This document shows positions 13,143-60,050 of a DNA stretch of 64,000 bases, piece by piece. Each line of letters starts with the position of its first letter. Positions within the stretch are counted from its first letter, which is position 1. A program made the translations under genes and the position numbers. The notes under the pieces were generated by a model that saw only the letters and a program-made list of their open reading frames with translations, was not told where the DNA came from and did no database searches. Source of the stretch: Klebsiella phage phiKp_32; the sequence record LC768500.1. One strand, written 5' to 3'.

Positions 13143-13161
13143 ACTACGAGGAAATGAAAAA

Positions 13162-23639: not shown

Positions 23640-23839
23640 GCTCTAGCGCAATATATTAGGCCTTCGGCCTAAAGGGCTAGGGTAAGTCTATTCGTTCGTT
23701 TCAGCATCAATCAAGGTATTCGCTACGCTCATACTTTCTTATGCTGATCGATGGGTAGAAAATCTTTCTATTTTAGTTAAATACCAGTTAAAACGGGTTT
23801 GGGCGACGTCTTTTTGAAAATTTAACTAGTGGCTATCAT

Positions 23840-25123
23840 CTTGGTACTTAACTTATTTAATTTAAACTCTATATCATAAAGTCGGAGGAACTTATTATGT
23901 TTATTTCTAAACGAGGTAAACTCCGGCTCTATAAAGAGGACGTGGAGTTAGTTAATCGCACCTTTGGTTGTCGGAGATTTGTATGGAATCAATTATTGGG
24001 TTTACACAAAGAGCGATATGAAAAATGGAAGGAAAATAATAACTTAGAAAAACCCACAGTTTCTATTTCTGCATTGAGAGAAGATTTTAAACGTATTAGA
24101 TCGGAGCATTCTTGGTTAAATGAAGTAAGTTCTGTTGCTTTATATGAGACCATTACTGATCTTTATAATGCCTTTCAACGCTTCTTCAATAATCAATCCG
24201 GTTACCCTAAGTTTAAATCTAAGAGAGGCGCGCAGACTTTTCGTATCACCTCTAGGGTCAACCTGCGGGTCGAGGGTAATATGGTTAGGTTACCCAAATC
24301 CAATTGTTATTCGATATTCTCTAAAAATACTGTCTTAAATGATCCTTCTTCTTATACCGTTACTAGGGATAGCGTAGGCGATTATTTCATCTCTTTCGTA
24401 GACCAAATTGATGAGATAGAGCCAGAACCCGAAAGTAAGGGCAAACATGTAGGGATCGATTTAGGAATTAAATCCTTAGCGATTGTTAAACCTAGTAAGG
24501 GAGAACCTTGGGAATTAATCAACCCTAGAACGTATACGAAATATCAAAAACGCAGAACGACGCTACAACGCCGTTTAATGAAAAAGAAGAAAGGGAGTAA
24601 AAACAGAAACAAAGCTAGAATTAAATTAGCGAAGTTAGAACGTAAAGTTGCTAATATTCGTAAAGATCTTTTACACAAATTTACGACTACACTGATTAAA
24701 GAAAACCAAATGATCAGTATCGAAGATTTAAATGTAAAAGGGATGTTAAAAAACCATAGCTTGGCTAAACATATTCAGGATTGTTCTTTTGGTACAATTA
24801 GAACGATGCTGGAATATAAAGCTAAACGTTATACTCGAAATAAAACGATCACCATCGTTAATCGGTTCTTTGCAAGCACTCAACTTTGTTCTCAGTGCGG
24901 TGTTCTCCCTAAAGAGCGTATCGGACTTAAAATCAGGAACTGGGTATGTTGGAACTGCGGCACTAAACACGATAGAGATATTAACGCTGCTACGAATATC
25001 CTTAACCAAGGATTACGTTTAACAACCTCCTAGGTTAAGGGTATTTATTACCCTTGGTCTGAGGGGAAGTTAAGCCTGTGGAGACAAGTTGCAGTAAGGA
25101 CTTTCTATGAAGCAGGAAGTTGA
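23840..25123 (+). mobile_element. IS605-family TnpB-only (IS1341-like) element, copy 1
   Basis: Ends are approximate. Inferred from where sequence similarity to copy 2 begins (about 55 nt upstream of tnpB) and ends (conserved gaagcaggaagttga 90 nt past the tnpB stop). Confidence 0.5.
23897..25033 (+). CDS. tnpB: TnpB (OrfB) RNA-guided endonuclease-family protein
   Basis: RuvC-I GIDLGIKS, RuvC-II ISIEDLNVKGM, zinc finger CSQCG...CWNCG, RuvC-III HDRDINAATNI. 378 aa. Confidence 0.85.
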   Translation: MFISKRGKLRLYKEDVELVNRTFGCRRFVWNQLLGLHKERYEKWKENNNLEKPTVSISALREDFKRIRSEHSWLNEVSSVALYETITDLYNAFQRFFNNQSGYPKFKSKRGAQTFRITSRVNLRVEGNMVRLPKSNCYSIFSKNTVLNDPSSYTVTRDSVGDYFISFVDQIDEIEPEPESKGKHVGIDLGIKSLAIVKPSKGEPWELINPRTYTKYQKRRTTLQRRLMKKKKGSKNRNKARIKLAKLERKVANIRKDLLHKFTTTLIKENQMISIEDLNVKGMLKNHSLAKHIQDCSFGTIRTMLEYKAKRYTRNKTITIVNRFFASTQLCSQCGVLPKERIGLKIRNWVCWNCGTKHDRDINAATNILNQGLRLTTS

Positions 25124-25145
25124 AATATACAAGACATCTTACACT
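25010..25145 (+). ncRNA. Putative omegaRNA (TnpB guide RNA) derived from the element's right end
   Basis: A segment overlapping the 3' end of tnpB and extending 90 nt past it is conserved with copy 2 (ggttaagggtattta..ttggtctgagggga.gttaagcctg.ggag...gaagcaggaagttga). It is followed by a copy-specific sequence, aatatacaagacatcttac..., that would serve as the guide. Confidence 0.45.
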
Positions 25146-25308
25146 CACCCATGCAACCTGGAGAGAAACCCCGACTGAACAAAGTTGTTTATTCCTTCTC
25201 AGGGGAATAAACAGTTCGTCGGCTAAAGACATAGGATGTTTTATGATCAGTAAAGAAATACGATAATCTAAACTTATTAGTTCAAACACTGTAATCTAGG
25301 AGATAACC

Positions 25309-25425
25309 ATGAATATCGTAATGCCACTAAAGCTACTCGGAGGGTTACTTATCCTGGGAGTGGGTTTTGGATTACTGGTTTATCTCATCGTTAAACTCTC
25401 TGTTAAAATGGCGTATAAGAAATGA
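25309..25425 (+). CDS. Putative small single-TM peptide (38 aa)
   Basis: RBS aggag then ATG. MNIVMPLKLLGGLLILGVGFGLLVYLIVKLSVKMAYKK. Its stop overlaps the next start (ATGA). Confidence 0.4.
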   Translation: MNIVMPLKLLGGLLILGVGFGLLVYLIVKLSVKMAYKK

Positions 25426-25889
25426 GTGAAGAAGAGTTATCATTAGGTTATATTTCAGTTAAAGTCATTCCCACTCAGGAAGACATTCTTAAAGATAAGG
25501 TGTTGGATGCGGGATGTCTTCCGTTAGATGAAGGGGCATATCACGCTACTCTTATTTTTGATATTCATCAAGATGGCGTGATCCCTAACGTACCTATGAT
25601 CCCTGAAAAGATCTTCGAGGGAAAGGTTATTGGAATCAAGGAACTCGGAGAGCGTAAAGGAGATATTATCTCAGCCGTTGTACTCGAACTGGATTCTCCT
25701 GAATTGACAGAAGAGCATGATCGGTTAATACAATGTGGGTATGGTCATTCCTATCCGGATTACATCCCCCATATTTCGCTCGCTTACAAGGTCACAGAAG
25801 AGCAAATGGAAGATCTCAAACGACAGTGTGAGTCGCTTATTGGTAAAACGTTCTACTTATCCGGAGAGAGCATCGACTGGATAGATTAA
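25422..25889 (+). CDS. 2H phosphoesterase-superfamily protein (LigT/Acb1-like); candidate cyclic-oligonucleotide phosphodiesterase
   Basis: Two H-x-[TS]-x motifs, HATL at H41 and HISL at H117, in a 155-aa protein. This spacing is the 2H-fold hallmark. Confidence 0.55.
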   Translation: MSEEELSLGYISVKVIPTQEDILKDKVLDAGCLPLDEGAYHATLIFDIHQDGVIPNVPMIPEKIFEGKVIGIKELGERKGDIISAVVLELDSPELTEEHDRLIQCGYGHSYPDYIPHISLAYKVTEEQMEDLKRQCESLIGKTFYLSGESIDWID

Positions 25890-25902
25890 GAGGTAAAGGG
25901 GT

Positions 25903-26331
25903 ATGTCTGATAAACTTACTGTATCACTTTTTAAGCTTATAAAAAACCATACTGGGTTAACGTTAAAGGAAGGCGAATTCTCTTTAACGGGAGAAAGACC
26001 CTTTTGGTTCAGAATACCTCCTTTCTCCCTTAACCCCAGTTCAAGAGATAGATTGAGAGATCTCTTTCAAGATAACTTTGATGTGACTGTAGTTGATTAT
26101 GTCGACGATTACCAGATCATATTCAGCCAAATTGAACCAACAACTTCTCGTCGTATAAAACGAGTCAGGAACATCCTAGATGTGTTAGAAAGAGAGTACG
26201 GTAGAAACTGTCTCAGACCAGAAACTGGTAGAATCTTGAGCGGATATTACTCTACTCATAAAGACAGAATAGAACAGGAAGAACTTGCTTATAATAAAAA
26301 GATTTTAAATGAAGCTTTACGACGACGTTAA
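25903..26331 (+). CDS. Hypothetical protein (142 aa)
   Basis: ORF with RBS aagggg. Confidence 0.5.
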   Translation: MSDKLTVSLFKLIKNHTGLTLKEGEFSLTGERPFWFRIPPFSLNPSSRDRLRDLFQDNFDVTVVDYVDDYQIIFSQIEPTTSRRIKRVRNILDVLEREYGRNCLRPETGRILSGYYSTHKDRIEQEELAYNKKILNEALRRR

Positions 26332-26372
26332 TCTTATGCAATATTTTTAATCTTAAAACGTGGGGTGGGTAA

Positions 26373-26755: not shown

Positions 26756-26792
26756 TATTTTACTTGTATTCTTTTTTGGATCGATATTATTT
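26756..26792 (+). promoter_or_regulatory. Sigma70-like promoter candidate (TTTTACTTGTAT cassette, copy 1)
   Basis: TTTTACTTGTAT immediately after the terminator, with gatattat about 17 nt downstream. The same cassette recurs at 56138 and 56674. Confidence 0.4.
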
Positions 26793-26829
26793 ATGTGTAA
26801 ACCTCAATAACTTTTTAGGAATCAACATC

Positions 26830-49408: not shown

Positions 49409-49684
49409 ATGAAATTTACTTCTGCTGTTGCAAAACTCAAACCTGGTTTCGGTATTCAGTGCACCGATTGGAATGGCGCAAATCAGTTTGTTTTCGATGC
49501 CTCTTTGACCATGTCTCTCGTTGAAGCACGCAAGCAGGGCTTCCCCGGCCCGGTTAAACTGAAACCGGTTTACGTGTTGCATAACGCCAAGGGTGAGCTG
49601 CAACCTGGTTGGGTGCCGTCTCAGGGTGATCTGCGCAACGAGAACTGGGTCGTTGTCAAAATCAAAGACGCGCTGGCGAAATGA
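49409..49684 (+). CDS. DUF2829-like small phage protein
   Basis: 91 aa with a W-N-G-A-N-Q-style motif (CTDWNGANQFVF). Chosen over the overlapping antisense ORF 49349..49603. Confidence 0.45.
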   Translation: MKFTSAVAKLKPGFGIQCTDWNGANQFVFDASLTMSLVEARKQGFPGPVKLKPVYVLHNAKGELQPGWVPSQGDLRNENWVVVKIKDALAK

Positions 49685-50984: not shown

Positions 50985-52262
50985 GGATAGTTCATCTATT
51001 TTTAGTTCTACATTATCTGGTCGGAGGAACTAAAAATGTTTATTAGTAAACGGGGTAAACTCCGGCCACATAAATCCAATATTGAAATTATCGAACGGAC
51101 TTTCGGTTGTCGGAGATTTGTCTGGAATCAGTTATTAGGATTACATAAAGAGCAATATGAAAAATGGAAGGGGGATAATACTTTAGAAAAACCCAAATTA
51201 AGTTTAACACTGCTTAATAAAGAGCTCAATGAGCTCAAAATAACTCATTCTTGGTTAAATGAAGTAAGTGCCGTAGTTTTACAACAAAGCGTCAATGATC
51301 TTTATAGTGCTTTTCAAGGTTTCTTTAAGAGAGGCAAAGGTTACCCTAAATTTAAATCCAAAAGAGGAATTCAATCTTTTCGGTTTTCAGGTAGTCGGGA
51401 TATTCATGTCGACCACTCTAAAATCAGATTACCCAAATGCAATCATAAATCGGTAATTTCTAAAAACGTTATACTCAACGATCCTTCTTCCTATACCGTT
51501 ATTCGTGATCGGGTTGGCGATTATTTTATTTCCTTTGTTGACCAAATCGAAGAGATTGAACAAGAACCTGAAAGTAAGGGTAAGTTCGTCGGGGTTGATT
51601 TAGGGATCAAATCCTTGGCGGTTATTAAACACGTAAACGGTAAAGTAGAGGAAATAGAAAATCCTCAATTTTATCGTAAAGCTGAAAAACGTTTAAAGAC
51701 GTTATCCCGTCGTTTAAGTAAGAAACAGAAAGGGAGTAAGAATCGGAACAAAGCCAGAATTAAATTAGCTAAACACTGTCGAAAGATTGCTAATCAACGC
51801 AATGACTTTTTACATAAATTATCCACTCGATTAATTACCGAAAACCAAGGGATTAATATCGAAGATTTAAATGTAAAGGGGATGGTTAAGAATCATAACT
51901 TAGCGAAGTCGATTCAAGATGCGTCTTTCAGTATCTTAAAACAACAATTGATTTACAAAGCTAGCCGGTATATTAAACCTAAAGTGATTTGTCTTGTCGA
52001 TCGTTTTTATCCCAGTACTCAAATCTGCTCTCATTGTGGCGTTAAAAGTGAAGTGAAAATCAAACTTCACGTAAGAGAATGGACCTGTGGTCACTGCGGA
52101 ACGCATCACGATCGTGACATTAATGCGGCTACGAATATCCTTAACGAAGGATGTCGTTTAACTACTTCCTAGGTTAAGGGTATTTAGTTACCCCTACCCT
52201 TGGTCTGAGGGGACGTTAAGCCTGCGGAGTGCTGCAGTTGGTACGAGGAAGCAGGAAGTTGA
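50985..52262 (+). mobile_element. IS605-family TnpB-only element, copy 2
   Basis: Ends approximate. Upstream homology to copy 1 (tcta.at.at...gtcggaggaac); downstream conserved scaffold ends at gaagcaggaagttga (52248-52262). Confidence 0.5.
51036..52172 (+). CDS. tnpB: TnpB RNA-guided endonuclease-family protein, copy 2
   Basis: GVDLGIKS, INIEDLNVKGM, CSHCG...CGHCG, HDRDINAATNI. Roughly 65% identical to copy 1 by eye. Confidence 0.85.
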   Translation: MFISKRGKLRPHKSNIEIIERTFGCRRFVWNQLLGLHKEQYEKWKGDNTLEKPKLSLTLLNKELNELKITHSWLNEVSAVVLQQSVNDLYSAFQGFFKRGKGYPKFKSKRGIQSFRFSGSRDIHVDHSKIRLPKCNHKSVISKNVILNDPSSYTVIRDRVGDYFISFVDQIEEIEQEPESKGKFVGVDLGIKSLAVIKHVNGKVEEIENPQFYRKAEKRLKTLSRRLSKKQKGSKNRNKARIKLAKHCRKIANQRNDFLHKLSTRLITENQGINIEDLNVKGMVKNHNLAKSIQDASFSILKQQLIYKASRYIKPKVICLVDRFYPSTQICSHCGVKSEVKIKLHVREWTCGHCGTHHDRDINAATNILNEGCRLTTS

Positions 52263-52285
52263 TTTATCAGCAAGACACATTATCT
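52150..52285 (+). ncRNA. Putative omegaRNA of TnpB copy 2
   Basis: Same conserved scaffold as copy 1, followed by a different 3' sequence tttatcagcaagacacattatc. Confidence 0.45.
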
Positions 52286-52299
52286 TTTCGGAGTAATCA

Positions 52300-52488
52300 A
52301 TGAAATGCAATCACGATTTTGAAAAACCCACCTATGAATTCTTAAAGAAGGAGTCGGGCTTCTTTCATTGTTTTAAACGAACGTGTAAACAATGCGGGCA
52401 TGTTCACCAACAAGAAGTGAAACGTAAATCAGATGTGCCTCTCTGGGCTAAAGAAGCAGAAGAGGTATTTCACTATCACAAATTTTAG
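52300..52488 (+). CDS. Small zinc-ribbon-like protein (62 aa)
   Basis: C3, H5...H23, C24...C29-x2-C32, H34. RBS ggag. Confidence 0.5.
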   Translation: MKCNHDFEKPTYEFLKKESGFFHCFKRTCKQCGHVHQQEVKRKSDVPLWAKEAEEVFHYHKF

Positions 52489-59405: not shown

Positions 59406-60050
59406 ATGGCAACTCCACGTAAAAAGAAACCCGCAACAAAAAACCGCATGACTTTCGAACAAAAACGTCTGTCTGAAATCATTAAGAAAGTCTATCACGA
59501 GCTCTATTTTGTCGGTGCATCTTTCTATAAACCTACGGCGGTTAACGCCAATAAACTCTTCTTGGGGGCGCAGGGCAAGGAAGTGCATACCGCCAGGAGA
59601 ATTCTATTAGATCATTTGATCAGCCTTAAGACGAACTGGCCTTTATGGGTTGGGTGTTTCTTCAATACCCCTAATGGAATCTCTGTAGCTACCGCAGACT
59701 CTTTATGGGAAAATGAGACGATGTTATCCTTCGGGGGTCAGTTTCATAAAAGGATCGATAGTATCGTGGATGGAATTATCGAAGCAGAGGCTGATGCTGA
59801 TTGCACTCGGGAAACGTTGATAGGATACGGGTACTTCTTTAGTCACTGCGATGTCTACAACATGTCCGGGACGGACGAACGTTTAGTAAAACTGATGCTC
59901 CCCTATATGGATGGGTATTTGGCTAAAGAAGTTAAACCAGAAGACGTCGTCGTTAGCACAGACCTTTTGATCGAATCAATAGTCAAACGCGGTGGGGTGG
60001 CTAAAGATGGCAAAATCGAAGAATACATCGAGGTGTCGGAGGAGTGGTGA
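59406..60050 (+). CDS. Hypothetical protein (214 aa)
   Basis: ORF with the tttaggaataaacatcATG start context. Confidence 0.55.
   Translation: MATPRKKKPATKNRMTFEQKRLSEIIKKVYHELYFVGASFYKPTAVNANKLFLGAQGKEVHTARRILLDHLISLKTNWPLWVGCFFNTPNGISVATADSLWENETMLSFGGQFHKRIDSIVDGIIEAEADADCTRETLIGYGYFFSHCDVYNMSGTDERLVKLMLPYMDGYLAKEVKPEDVVVSTDLLIESIVKRGGVAKDGKIEEYIEVSEEW

Follow-up and report, generated by a model that had tools for sequence, protein, structure and literature searches.

The second tnpB locus of the Klebsiella jumbo phage phiKp_32, a relative of phage Miami, is, judging from the alleles of related phages, a real second copy of a TnpB and guide-RNA element and a recent arrival in this genome. 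The element is probably a TnpB-only member of the IS200/IS605 type that homes into the empty alleles of co-infecting relatives. TnpB is the ancestor of Cas12, and its gene is among the most abundant in prokaryotes. The copies are mostly “solo”, which raises the question of how they last and spread when TnpA is missing. Positions below refer to the window, i.e. the whole 64,000-nucleotide stretch of record LC768500.1 that was analyzed, and all the features described lie on its + strand.

The window contains two intact tnpB genes encoding proteins of 378 aa, copy 1 (23897-25033) and copy 2 (51036-52172). Both are already named TnpB in the GenBank record. The two proteins align without gaps, with 240 of 378 residues identical (63%), and the ORFs share 68% nucleotide identity; the second, diverged TnpB element announced by the original prediction is thus borne out, as is its identity to copy 1, estimated by eye at about 65%. 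Copy 2 matches the Pfam families OrfB_IS605 (1.8e-29), Cas12f1-like_TNB (7.5e-19) and HTH_OrfB_IS605, and scores 322 bits with NCBIfam guided_TnpB (cut-off 100) and 349 bits with IS200_TnpB, under the cut-off of 425. It aligns over its full length with the structures of ISDra2 TnpB (8EXA/8H1J, E=1.8e-60), its GVDLG, IEDL and HDRD motifs facing the three RuvC motifs; the split RuvC (D, E, D) and the zinc-finger/TNB domain with its cysteines are present. The tnpB genes compared are under purifying selection and their catalytic residues are intact: dN/dS is 0.11-0.27 across all 21 copy pairs, at dS of 0.65-1.8, and the eight copies from sequenced isolates are all full length with D/E/D.

Comparison with Miami, KPN8 and YC1, in which the site is empty, gives the borders of copy 2. 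It measures 1267 bp, with two equivalent sets of coordinates, 51019-52285 or 51010-52276, because a 9-bp direct repeat, ACATTATCT, flanks it on both sides (left copy 51010-51018, right copy 52277-52285); the empty allele holds a single copy of this repeat. The element first placed at 50985-52285 is real, its extent being corrected by these empty sites. It starts 28-36 nt past the stop codon of the upstream phage gene (50059-50982, 307 aa), a homologue of Miami gp102, which is labelled “Rossmann fold-containing protein”. This gene had been called QueC-like; it shows only an N-terminal PP-loop motif, its QueC match reaches 15 bits (E=0.011) against a cut-off of 150, and it has no match in Pfam or among solved structures, so that the family assignment is unsupported. 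The candidate TAM of copy 2, TCTAC (51007-51011), makes up the left flank's final 5 nt if the right end finishes in GACAC. It is followed by a short left end and 5' UTR, ATTATCTGGTCGGAGGAACTAAAA (51012-51035), which carries a ribosome-binding site, GGAGG (51023-51027), and for which fold prediction gave no significant hairpin. On the other side of the gene, the predicted omega-RNA scaffold (52094-52278, the 5' limit being approximate) would comprise the last ~80 nt of the ORF and the 106-nt right end (52173-52278). The tail of this right end, TTTATCAGCAAGACAC (52263-52278), lies inside the insert and is semi-conserved in the family. The predicted guide, ATTATCTTTTCGGAGTAATC (52279-52298), starts after GACAN and shares nucleotides with the ribosome-binding site of the gene that follows (ATG at 52300).

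The insert of copy 1, delimited by the empty alleles of Miami, BUCTxx100 and VB_ZK_P1, is 1394 bp (23744-25137, equally 23746-25139) and is preceded by the candidate TAM TTATG (23739-23743). The gene is followed by the right end (25034-25137) and by the predicted guide, CTTACACTCACCCATGCAAC (25138-25157), which Miami and BUCTxx100 carry without change in their empty alleles. Upstream of the gene lies the relic of an older left junction, TCTAT followed by ATCATAAAGTCGGAGG (23868-23896); the extra left part of this copy (153 nt) has no match among 50,697 phage records. The similarity between the two copies begins ~30 nt ahead of the ATG, weakly at first, and stops at CAAGACA(Y). A larger segmental duplication, which the original prediction had itself named as the explanation to be eliminated, was checked by alignment and is rejected: the similarity is limited to the element, each copy is bracketed by empty alleles, and the flanks are unrelated.

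The conservation of the right end is confirmed, the 3' regions of the two copies having 86 identical positions across 104 and 106 nt. The ~105-nt right end terminates at CAAGACAN, and the window contains exactly two occurrences of the motif GAAGCAGGAAGTTGA (0.13 expected). The right end is conserved over nine copies up to a sharp boundary, and its tail is common to all 10 family copies with a readable right end, as CAAGACA in most and otherwise as GAGACA, GCGACA, GGGACA or CAAGACG. In the predicted consensus fold, stems are nested and CTGC pairs with GCAG over a long range, with two copies showing a compensatory change; of the 43 pairs in the RNAalifold consensus, only 4 are changed on both sides. 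The Rfam scan of the whole window gave no family above threshold, therefore no curated guide-RNA model applies. Exact-pattern scans for the core of the right end found only phage EL in IMG/VR, one Miami-like contig in the JGI metagenomes and, among GTDB genomes, only MAGs of Bacilli, where the family is a more distant one and the motif sits downstream of a TnpB gene. With nhmmer, no solo right-end remnants (footprints) were found in the window and VB_ZK_P1 besides the full copies.

Each site has its own predicted guide, identical to the local flank. Copies 1 and 2 had been said to have different guides, and this is correct, each predicted guide being flank-derived; the guide sequences then proposed are nevertheless wrong, because they begin with 14-16 nt of inserted DNA: for copy 2, the first 14 nt of tttatcagcaagacacattatc (16 if the right end finishes in GACAC) are missing from the empty allele. 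The guides predicted from the insert boundaries start after GACAN, at 52279 and 25138. The caagaca core is indeed shared by the two copies, but it belongs to the tail of the right end and not to the guides. At up to three mismatches, neither the sequences first proposed nor the guides predicted here have any other match in the window.

Miami, KPN8 and YC1 have the predicted guide of copy 2 unchanged in their empty alleles, where it adjoins CTAC and where TCTAC stands directly ahead of the guide-matching sequence. The filled allele of copy 2 still keeps the TAM and, behind it, a 15/20 match to its own guide, of which only 7 nt next to the TAM are contiguous; this counts against the homing reading, in which the filled allele would have to be spared. 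The arrangement of the empty allele recurs at the sites mapped in the family: AYG or KAY directly precedes the guide match in the empty allele at 12 of 12 sites, with the right end taken to finish in GACAN. Of the two registers considered for the right end, GACA and GACAN, the latter fits all sites without mismatch; a single TAM for all copies did not emerge. The motifs are TATG (three sites), TACG (two), CATG and AATG for one class, and CTAT (three), CTAC and CGAT for the other. The chance expectation is 0.104 per site, the motif classes and the 1-nt register having been set after seeing the data, and for one of the 12 sites (L080) a diverged homologous site was read by eye. Part of the match between guide and empty allele follows from how the guide is defined, which leaves the conserved motif as the only independent evidence. 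The rule is kept even at sites with deletions at the left junction, and the motif class tracks the protein subtype imperfectly (L073). The flanking target, first described as TTAC/TTAT-like, is close to these motifs, the candidate TAMs being TTATG for copy 1 and TCTAC for copy 2. Read in this way, the motif rule agrees with a homing into empty alleles that is guided by RNA.

At the sites of copies 1 and 2, none of the five sequenced relatives has an insertion; the flanks there are ~90-97% (copy 2) and 88-97% (copy 1) identical to those of phiKp_32. Elsewhere in their genomes these relatives carry one family copy (Miami and BUCTxx100), three (VB_ZK_P1) or none (KPN8 and YC1), and each family copy has empty alleles in other relatives. 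The filled state is derived, because at two sites the filled alleles have lost 18 bp and 214 bp that are still present in the empty ones. phiKp_32 itself holds sites that are occupied in metagenomic relatives. The 8-mer GAGGAAAT, preceded by CTAC (13148-13155), is empty here and flanks the family copy of L069 on both sides; CAATATT, preceded by TTATG (26339-26345), is empty here and filled in L073. In L078, a segment of a 214-aa gene (59906-60028) is found on both sides of the family copy, the right end of which joins at about 59906-59907, directly after CTAT; a co-conversion of the flank is possible at this site. Only two sites are filled in more than one phage (L071/L072/L062 and ZKP1_b/L082), too few to demonstrate spread by homing. 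TnpB homologues are present in 424 phage records, and the close family (at least 61% identity) is small, with about 16 clusters; the contexts examined are all Miami-like phage DNA, one 1.8-kb contig labelled Spirochaetia MAG being left out. The copies are old relative to each other, as the dS values indicate, and this divergence is best read as that of a diverse pool of elements, not as long residence.

Right-end junctions are precise, left-end junctions ragged. Left ends span from 4 nt (L069) to about 150 nt ahead of the ATG, with 17-24 nt for copy 2, and five inserts (copy 1, BUCTxx100, ZKP1_b, L073 and L078) include a piece of an older left flank. The flanking target repeats measure 2, 2, 5-7, 7, 7-9, 8, 9 and 12 bp, plus one of 123 bp. 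Target duplications (5-12 bp, or 123 bp) are found at 7 of 12 sites, in the widest reading 9 bp at copy 2 and 7, 12, 8, 7, 9 and 123 bp at the others; at two sites the target has deletions, of 18 bp and 214 bp. The repeat of BUCTxx100 bears, in its left copy, the mismatch expected from a single crossover. The target of copy 2 equals the left end of P0002, an 85%-identical relative, at 15 of 15 nt (ATTATCTTTTCGGAG), and C-K-A-Y followed by AT(T/C)ATC is common to four independent sites. TAYATTAT was considered as a general phage promoter motif, which would have accounted for finding it repeatedly at left junctions, and this was rejected, since it occurs only four times in the 64 kb and is not positioned before genes. 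A canonical TnpA insertion leaves neither target duplications nor target deletions; from their sequences, the junctions described here do not look like canonical IS200/IS605 “peel and paste” by TnpA.

We therefore describe the homing of this element as follows. The guide-RNA scaffold would be encoded by the 3' end of tnpB plus the ~105-nt right end, and read-through past the right end would extend it by a guide that copies the adjoining phage DNA, as in the ISDra2 paradigm. The empty allele of a co-infecting relative is predicted to be cut by the TnpB-RNA complex of the carrier phage because the guide sequence sits there directly behind a TAM-like motif; recombination of the cut allele with the carrier would then copy the element in. 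That the guide RNA is expressed and processed, that the complex cleaves and that the element homes are all inferred. As for the colonization of new sites, it might proceed without a transposase, with the right end and the guide as anchor and with homing then spreading the insertions, but we hold this part to be rather doubtful. Its candidate routes are short-homology recombination of a circular copy, template switching, and target-primed copying at the R-loop. The marks expected of it are a precise junction between right end and guide, a TAM-proximal duplication of 5-12 nt, and a ragged left end that may include older flank. A target-primed, RNA-templated model fits the junction geometry, but TnpB cuts 15-21 nt from the TAM in ISDra2 work, which does not match repeats of 5-12 nt; this model is retained as a low-probability part only.

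Other explanations attribute the movement to a different agent. The element could be a non-autonomous IS200/IS605 (IS1341-type) element moved as single strand through “peel and paste” by a Y1 TnpA that the host or another element provides in trans, TnpB serving only to restore excised copies. The short conserved motif at the end of the left flank or before the guide at 12 of 12 sites agrees with this, as do its resemblance to TTGAT, the TAM of the homologous ISDra2, the apparent landing of L062 after a CTAT(G) motif within the right end of another copy, and the presence of a Y1 TnpA beside the TnpB of more distant phage-borne relatives (L028, L031, L040). But with a phage-borne TnpA as tblastn query no Y1 (HUH) TnpA was found in the window (best E=1.2), nor in the complete genome of VB_ZK_P1, which has three TnpB copies (best E=1.4), and no Miami-like phage appears among the 60 matches listed of 125 phage records. 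Moreover the left ends are of very variable length, those of copies 1 and 2 form single-strand hairpins no better than shuffled sequences (z -0.25 to -0.69), so that the subterminal hairpins expected at both ends are missing from the left one, and the duplications and deletions of the target are foreign to TnpA. We consider a TnpA in trans unlikely. Less likely still is a colonization entirely free of transposase, in which the right end would be the anchor for template switching or for recombination over short homology (a circle joining right and left ends might, for instance, recombine with a target resembling the start of the left end), with TnpB homing as amplifier of the successful events. 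The variable length of the flanking repeats, the BUCTxx100 mismatch, the match of the copy 2 target to the P0002 left end, the sequence common to four sites and the five inserts with older left flank all speak for it. Its basis is however purely comparative, homologies of 2-9 bp are short for known recombinases, and the AYG found at seven sites is unexplained by homology to the right end, which calls for selection or a nuclease step as well.

Two explanations remain. The original prediction favored long residence or domestication rather than a recent hop; spelled out, this would mean TnpB genes with fixed guides that may now serve the phage, for instance in regulation or defence. Both ORFs are indeed intact and under purifying selection, and both copies are oriented like their neighbouring genes, which are intact. 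Yet five close relatives have neither copy at these exact sites, the catalytic residues are kept, unlike those of the nuclease-dead TldR-type relatives, and the guides are local flank, different at every site, none having a second target in the window. The empty alleles leave the proposal unsupported and largely refute domestication, to which we give very little credit. An inert relic, i.e. a dead insertion that persists only for want of deletion so far, would explain why no transposase is found and why one family member, L062, is a frameshifted pseudogene. This is just as improbable, given a dN/dS that stays low although dS reaches 1.8, the full-length D/E/D copies in 8/8 cases, a right end conserved up to a sharp boundary, and many distinct recent insertion sites.

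For the homing of a TnpB-only element, the reading that we prefer, this phage clade is a natural experiment, with at least 12 mapped insertion sites for which filled and empty alleles exist, and with guide, TAM and target readable straight from the sequence. Since these alleles are found in cultivable, near-identical lytic phages (phiKp_32, Miami, KPN8, YC1, BUCTxx100, VB_ZK_P1), RNA-guided homing between co-infecting phages becomes testable by mixed infection. The anatomy of the junctions raises the possibility of a transposase-free route of mobility; if true, transposase-independent colonization would be a previously undescribed movement of the most abundant prokaryotic nuclease family. Corrected guide and TAM predictions are now available for two compact 378-aa nucleases, and the domesticated reading is corrected.

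The closest known system is the TnpB-omegaRNA of ISDra2 from Deinococcus radiodurans (8EXA, 8H1J, 8BF8). The phage proteins resemble it over their full length, in the RuvC D/E/D and in the zinc finger; the make-up of the scaffold (3' end of the gene with the right end) and the origin of the guide in the flank are predicted to be alike, and the candidate phage TAMs CGAT, CTAT and CTAC resemble TTGAT. Unlike ISDra2, the phage element has no tnpA, nor is there any in a complete relative genome; its left end is very short or variable and hairpin-free, most sites show target duplications, a second motif class (AYG) exists, and the elements reside in genomes of lytic jumbo phages. As a solo tnpB without tnpA it is like the IS1341-group elements and the phage TnpB genes already known. 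What goes beyond these is the mapping of ends, guides, TAM-like motifs and empty alleles at 12 sites in one phage clade, which shows, by comparison of alleles, ongoing movement with non-canonical junctions; in the literature searched, we found no paper describing such mapped TnpB sites and junctions in a phage clade. TldRs, the nuclease-dead TnpB-like RNA-guided repressors of temperate phages, are likewise phage-borne with a guide RNA. They differ from the present copies by the loss of RuvC residues and by a conserved guide against a host promoter; here catalytic residues are intact, guides equal the local flank with no conserved host target, and gene position is not conserved. “Transposon non-restorative homing” is discussed in PMC13565253 and was shown for plasmids in PMC11870625; the former, a review, holds TnpB homing between phages to be only theoretically possible. 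The free-standing homing endonuclease genes of phages (T4 Seg/Mob type) offer the nearest parallel in behaviour, with intergenic inserts present or absent among close relatives, cleavage specific to the empty allele (predicted here) and co-conversion of the flank (possible in L078). Unlike these endonucleases, which recognize their target by protein, TnpB would recognize it by an RNA guide and a TAM.

The gene of copy 2, the TnpB element under study (51036-52172, 378 aa), is in itself ordinary. Its protein is 100% identical to the entry "IS200/IS605 family element RNA-guided endonuclease TnpB" of the phiKp_32 record (251,460-bp genome, the source of the window), so the TnpB annotation already exists. 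It matches the Pfam families OrfB_IS605, Cas12f1-like_TNB and HTH_OrfB_IS605, lies above the NCBIfam guided_TnpB cut-off and scores higher with the NCBIfam IS200 model (349 bits) than with the IS607 model (200 bits). Its alignment to the solved ISDra2 TnpB covers the full length (E=1.8e-60), with GVDLG, IEDL and HDRD as the counterparts of the three RuvC motifs. Copy 1, the other TnpB in the window (23897-25033) and from the same phage, shares with it 240 of 378 residues in a gap-free alignment (68% nucleotide identity between the ORFs), and the 3' regions (104 and 106 nt) agree at 86 positions. The sequence GAAGCAGGAAGTTGA is found at two places only in the window, i.e. the two TnpB copies. 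The original prediction of a second, diverged TnpB with the scaffold of copy 1 is thus confirmed; copy 2 is a real TnpB element with a predicted omegaRNA.

The insertion site of copy 2 is uninterrupted, between homologues of both flanking genes, in the phages KPN8, YC1 and Miami (genus Miamivirus, 253 kb), the last a close relative with 96.6% identity around this locus. This empty allele reads ...TTAGTTCTACATTATCT/TTTCGGAGTAATCAATG (slashes mark junctions), and the filled allele ...TTCTACATTATCT/GGTCGGAGGAACTAAAAATG on the left and ...GTTGATTTATCAGCAAGAC/ACATTATCTTTTCGGAG on the right, giving an insert of 1267 bp. The 9-mer ACATTATCT occurs once in the empty allele and flanks copy 2 at 51010-51018 and 52277-52285. 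For copy 1 the empty allele of Miami, BUCTxx100 and VB_ZK_P1 (...CTTTCTTATGCT/TACACTCACCC) defines an insert of 1394 bp (23744-25137, or a shift of at most 2 nt). About 150 nt of extra DNA on its left had no match in a phage database search; within copy 1, TCTAT/ATCATAAAGTCGGAGG (23868-23896) is the remnant of an earlier left junction.

The guides originally proposed, tttatcagcaagaca... and aatatacaagaca..., are part of the insert. They form the tail of the right end (RE), the conserved stretch of about 105 nt located 3' of tnpB, and are semi-conserved within the family. This tail consists of 6–8 variable nucleotides, CAAGACA and one variable base, the core becoming GAGACA in Miami, GCGACA in ZKP1_c (one of three copies, ZKP1_a to ZKP1_c, in VB_ZK_P1), GGGACA in L071 and CAAGACG in L078, both records of relatives. 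By the logic of the element family the guide would be the flank 3' of the RE, i.e. a predicted ATTATCTTTTCGGAGTAATC for copy 2 (52279-52298, which overlaps the next gene's ribosome-binding site) and CTTACACTCACCCATGCAAC for copy 1 (25138-25157). Neither these nor the guides first proposed match elsewhere in the window when up to 3 mismatches are allowed.

With the RE end set at GACAN, the sequence that follows the RE stands, in the empty allele, directly behind an AYG or a KAY motif at 12 of 12 sites. The AYG class has seven sites: TATG for copy 1, ZKP1_c and L073, CATG for ZKP1_b and its metagenomic counterpart L082, AATG for Miami, and TACG for L069 and for the site shared by L071 and L062. 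The KAY class has five: CTAC for copy 2, CGAT for BUCTxx100, and CTAT for ZKP1_a, L078 and L080, the last assigned by visual reading of a homologous but diverged region. Most AYG sites have a copy-1-like protein and most KAY sites a copy-2-like one, with L073 as an exception. A random position in the window fits either class with probability 0.104; the nominal 1e-12 is too optimistic because the class definitions and the 1-nt register were fixed post hoc, but the signal is still strong. The rule is kept at both sites where deletions shifted the left junction. Judged from sequence, this arrangement would be the one required for an RNA-guided nuclease to target empty alleles but not filled ones. 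Homing of TnpB between phages is only theoretically possible according to a review (PMC13565253); in plasmids it has reported experimental support (PMC11870625).

Nine RE sequences align well. In their consensus fold, a predicted guide-RNA scaffold, the last codons pair with GTTAAGC in a long stem, an inner hairpin (AAGGGTA/TACCCTT) carries a variable loop, and there is a CTGYGG/YYGCAG hairpin. A long-range CTGC/GCAG pairing is predicted between the zinc-finger coding region and GAAGCAGG; it is altered on both sides in Miami and ZKP1_c. Covariation lends little support (4 pairs), the sequences being close to one another. The core GTTAAGCCTGYGGAG...GAARCAGGAA is also found in phage EL and downstream of a TnpB gene in Bacilli MAGs (L059). 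Other uncultured Bacilli MAG records (L058, L060, L061) hold several RE cores with no adjacent TnpB, e.g. behind a heavy-metal ATPase gene; such cores resemble solo guide RNAs or miniature elements derived from a distant TnpB family.

Both insertions of phiKp_32 are missing from all five sequenced relatives and are thus recent arrivals at these sites, which argues against the long residence originally proposed for the two copies. Family copies lie elsewhere in Miami (1), BUCTxx100 (1) and VB_ZK_P1 (3), with none in KPN8 and YC1, and each has an empty allele in other phages. Metagenomic relatives add insertion sites, three of which are empty in the window (13148, 26339 and 59906). Two empty alleles keep 18 bp and 214 bp absent from the filled ones; thus the filled state is derived. 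The family copies are old relative to each other: between them dS is 0.65–1.8 and dN/dS 0.11–0.27, while the phage backbones at the insertion sites diverge by only about 3–12%. The copies are also mosaic: BUCTxx100 and L073 have copy-2-like proteins (78–80%) yet copy-1-like right ends, and the closest partner of an ORF changes from block to block, which indicates recombination between element subtypes. The close family (at least 61% identity) comprises about 16 protein clusters, and its next relatives, at 51% identity, belong to EL-like phages. All contexts read are Miami-like phage DNA; one further contig, of 1.8 kb and outside the contexts read, is labelled Spirochaetia MAG. The picture is one of varied, putatively functional elements that move about within a single phage clade, rather than of the domestication also proposed.

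Individual loci add detail. ZKP1_b (L065 17150-18480) sits inside a 534-bp gene that has lost 214 bp; its junctions are identical in L082, a second, metagenomic phage. Among the sites seen, only one other is occupied in two or more genomes. ZKP1_c (L065 46700-48050) lies 5 nt inside the ORF of a Miami gp211 homologue; with its RE tail (...AGGAAATTGAAAAATATGCGACAT) it brings a new in-frame ATG together with an AGGA that resembles a Shine-Dalgarno sequence, and the start of the downstream gene is accordingly annotated within the element. The L062 copy (metagenome contig SKEH01000004.1, 4890-6210, minus strand), at a third site that lies upstream of a Cpn60-like gene, is chimeric and a pseudogene through a frameshift; in L071 and L072 an intact 384-aa copy occupies this site. 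Behind the RE of the L062 copy (...CAAGACAG) stand 28 nt left over from a Miami-type RE tail, AAACAGGAAATTGAAAAATATGGGACAG, which suggests that one element landed after CTAT(G) inside the right end of another before the two genes recombined. Window positions 23745-26345 form an insertion hot spot with copy 1, the L073 site (26339) and the L081 copy (P0010), the last about 90 nt downstream of the copy-1 site and replacing about 186 bp. A short L081 segment, TCTTTAGCCGACG, appears inverted (reverse complement of window positions ~25219-25231). Anti-defence genes stand beside both TnpB copies: the ORF two genes upstream of copy 2 (49409-49684) has a Tad2-like match (PF11195, Thoeris anti-defence 2, E=8.8e-14), and the 155-aa ORF just downstream of copy 1 (25422-25889) has a counterpart in L073 (96.7% nucleotide identity) with a precomputed Pfam Acb1 match (PF23474, anti-CBASS).

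Neither the window nor the complete VB_ZK_P1 genome yielded a detectable Y1 TnpA, and no Miami-like phage is among the TnpA matches listed. The left ends are ragged: the insert starts 4 nt before the ATG in L069, about 16–24 nt in copy 2, ZKP1_a, Miami and L071, 46–64 nt in ZKP1_b, L073, BUCTxx100 and ZKP1_c, and 151 nt in copy 1. Fold predictions for copies 1 and 2 gave no left-end hairpin better than shuffled sequence. Five inserts contain a piece of older left flank, as relic junctions in copy 1, BUCTxx100, ZKP1_b and L073, and in L078 as a divergent duplicate of the upstream gene's 3' end. Direct repeats of the target flank the copies at seven sites: ACATTATCT (copy 2), ATATTAT (ZKP1_a), TAAGTAGTT[A/C]CT (BUCTxx100), GAGGAAAT (L069), CAATATT (L073), GTTAAAGAA (L071) and 123 bp (L078). 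Two other sites have a 2-bp repeat only and two have target deletions. In L069 (3985-4005; empty site at window 13148-13155) the 8-mer that is duplicated serves the downstream gene as ribosome-binding site; TnpB and this gene thereby keep one copy each. The copy-2 target equals the left end of an 85%-identical relative (P0002) over 15 nt, ATTATCTTTTCGGAG, and C-K-A-Y followed by AT(T/C)ATC is common to four independent sites, even though TAYATTAT has just four occurrences in 64 kb and is no promoter-like motif. Both junction motif types (TCGAT+ATTAT and TTATG) stand together in the intergenic GATCGATATTATTTATG (26779-26795), which could be an unused target or a footprint.

The ragged left ends, the repeats and deletions, the P0002 match and the shared C-K-A-Y motif point to an insertion process that would be precise on the right, imprecise on the left and sensitive to short homology. 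Candidates are the one-ended action of a transposase supplied in trans, a circular copy recombining via short homology, and template switching. A paper on chimallin-encoding, nucleus-forming phages cites Miami as a distant relative of phage RAY; if Miami-like phages do form a nucleus, the access of a host transposase would be further limited. Under each of the three processes, selection would then favour the junctions that give a working guide beside a TAM, the short motif before the guide target.

What this analysis adds is the comparative anatomy of an apparently transposase-less TnpB family that is active within a clade of lytic jumbo phages. Its junctions depart from two canonical rules yet retain the guide/TAM geometry that homing would require. 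The motif of ISDra2, TTGAT, resembles the KAY class of the phage family. Canonical IS200/IS605 elements insert without target duplication, whereas the sites of the phage family mostly carry one.
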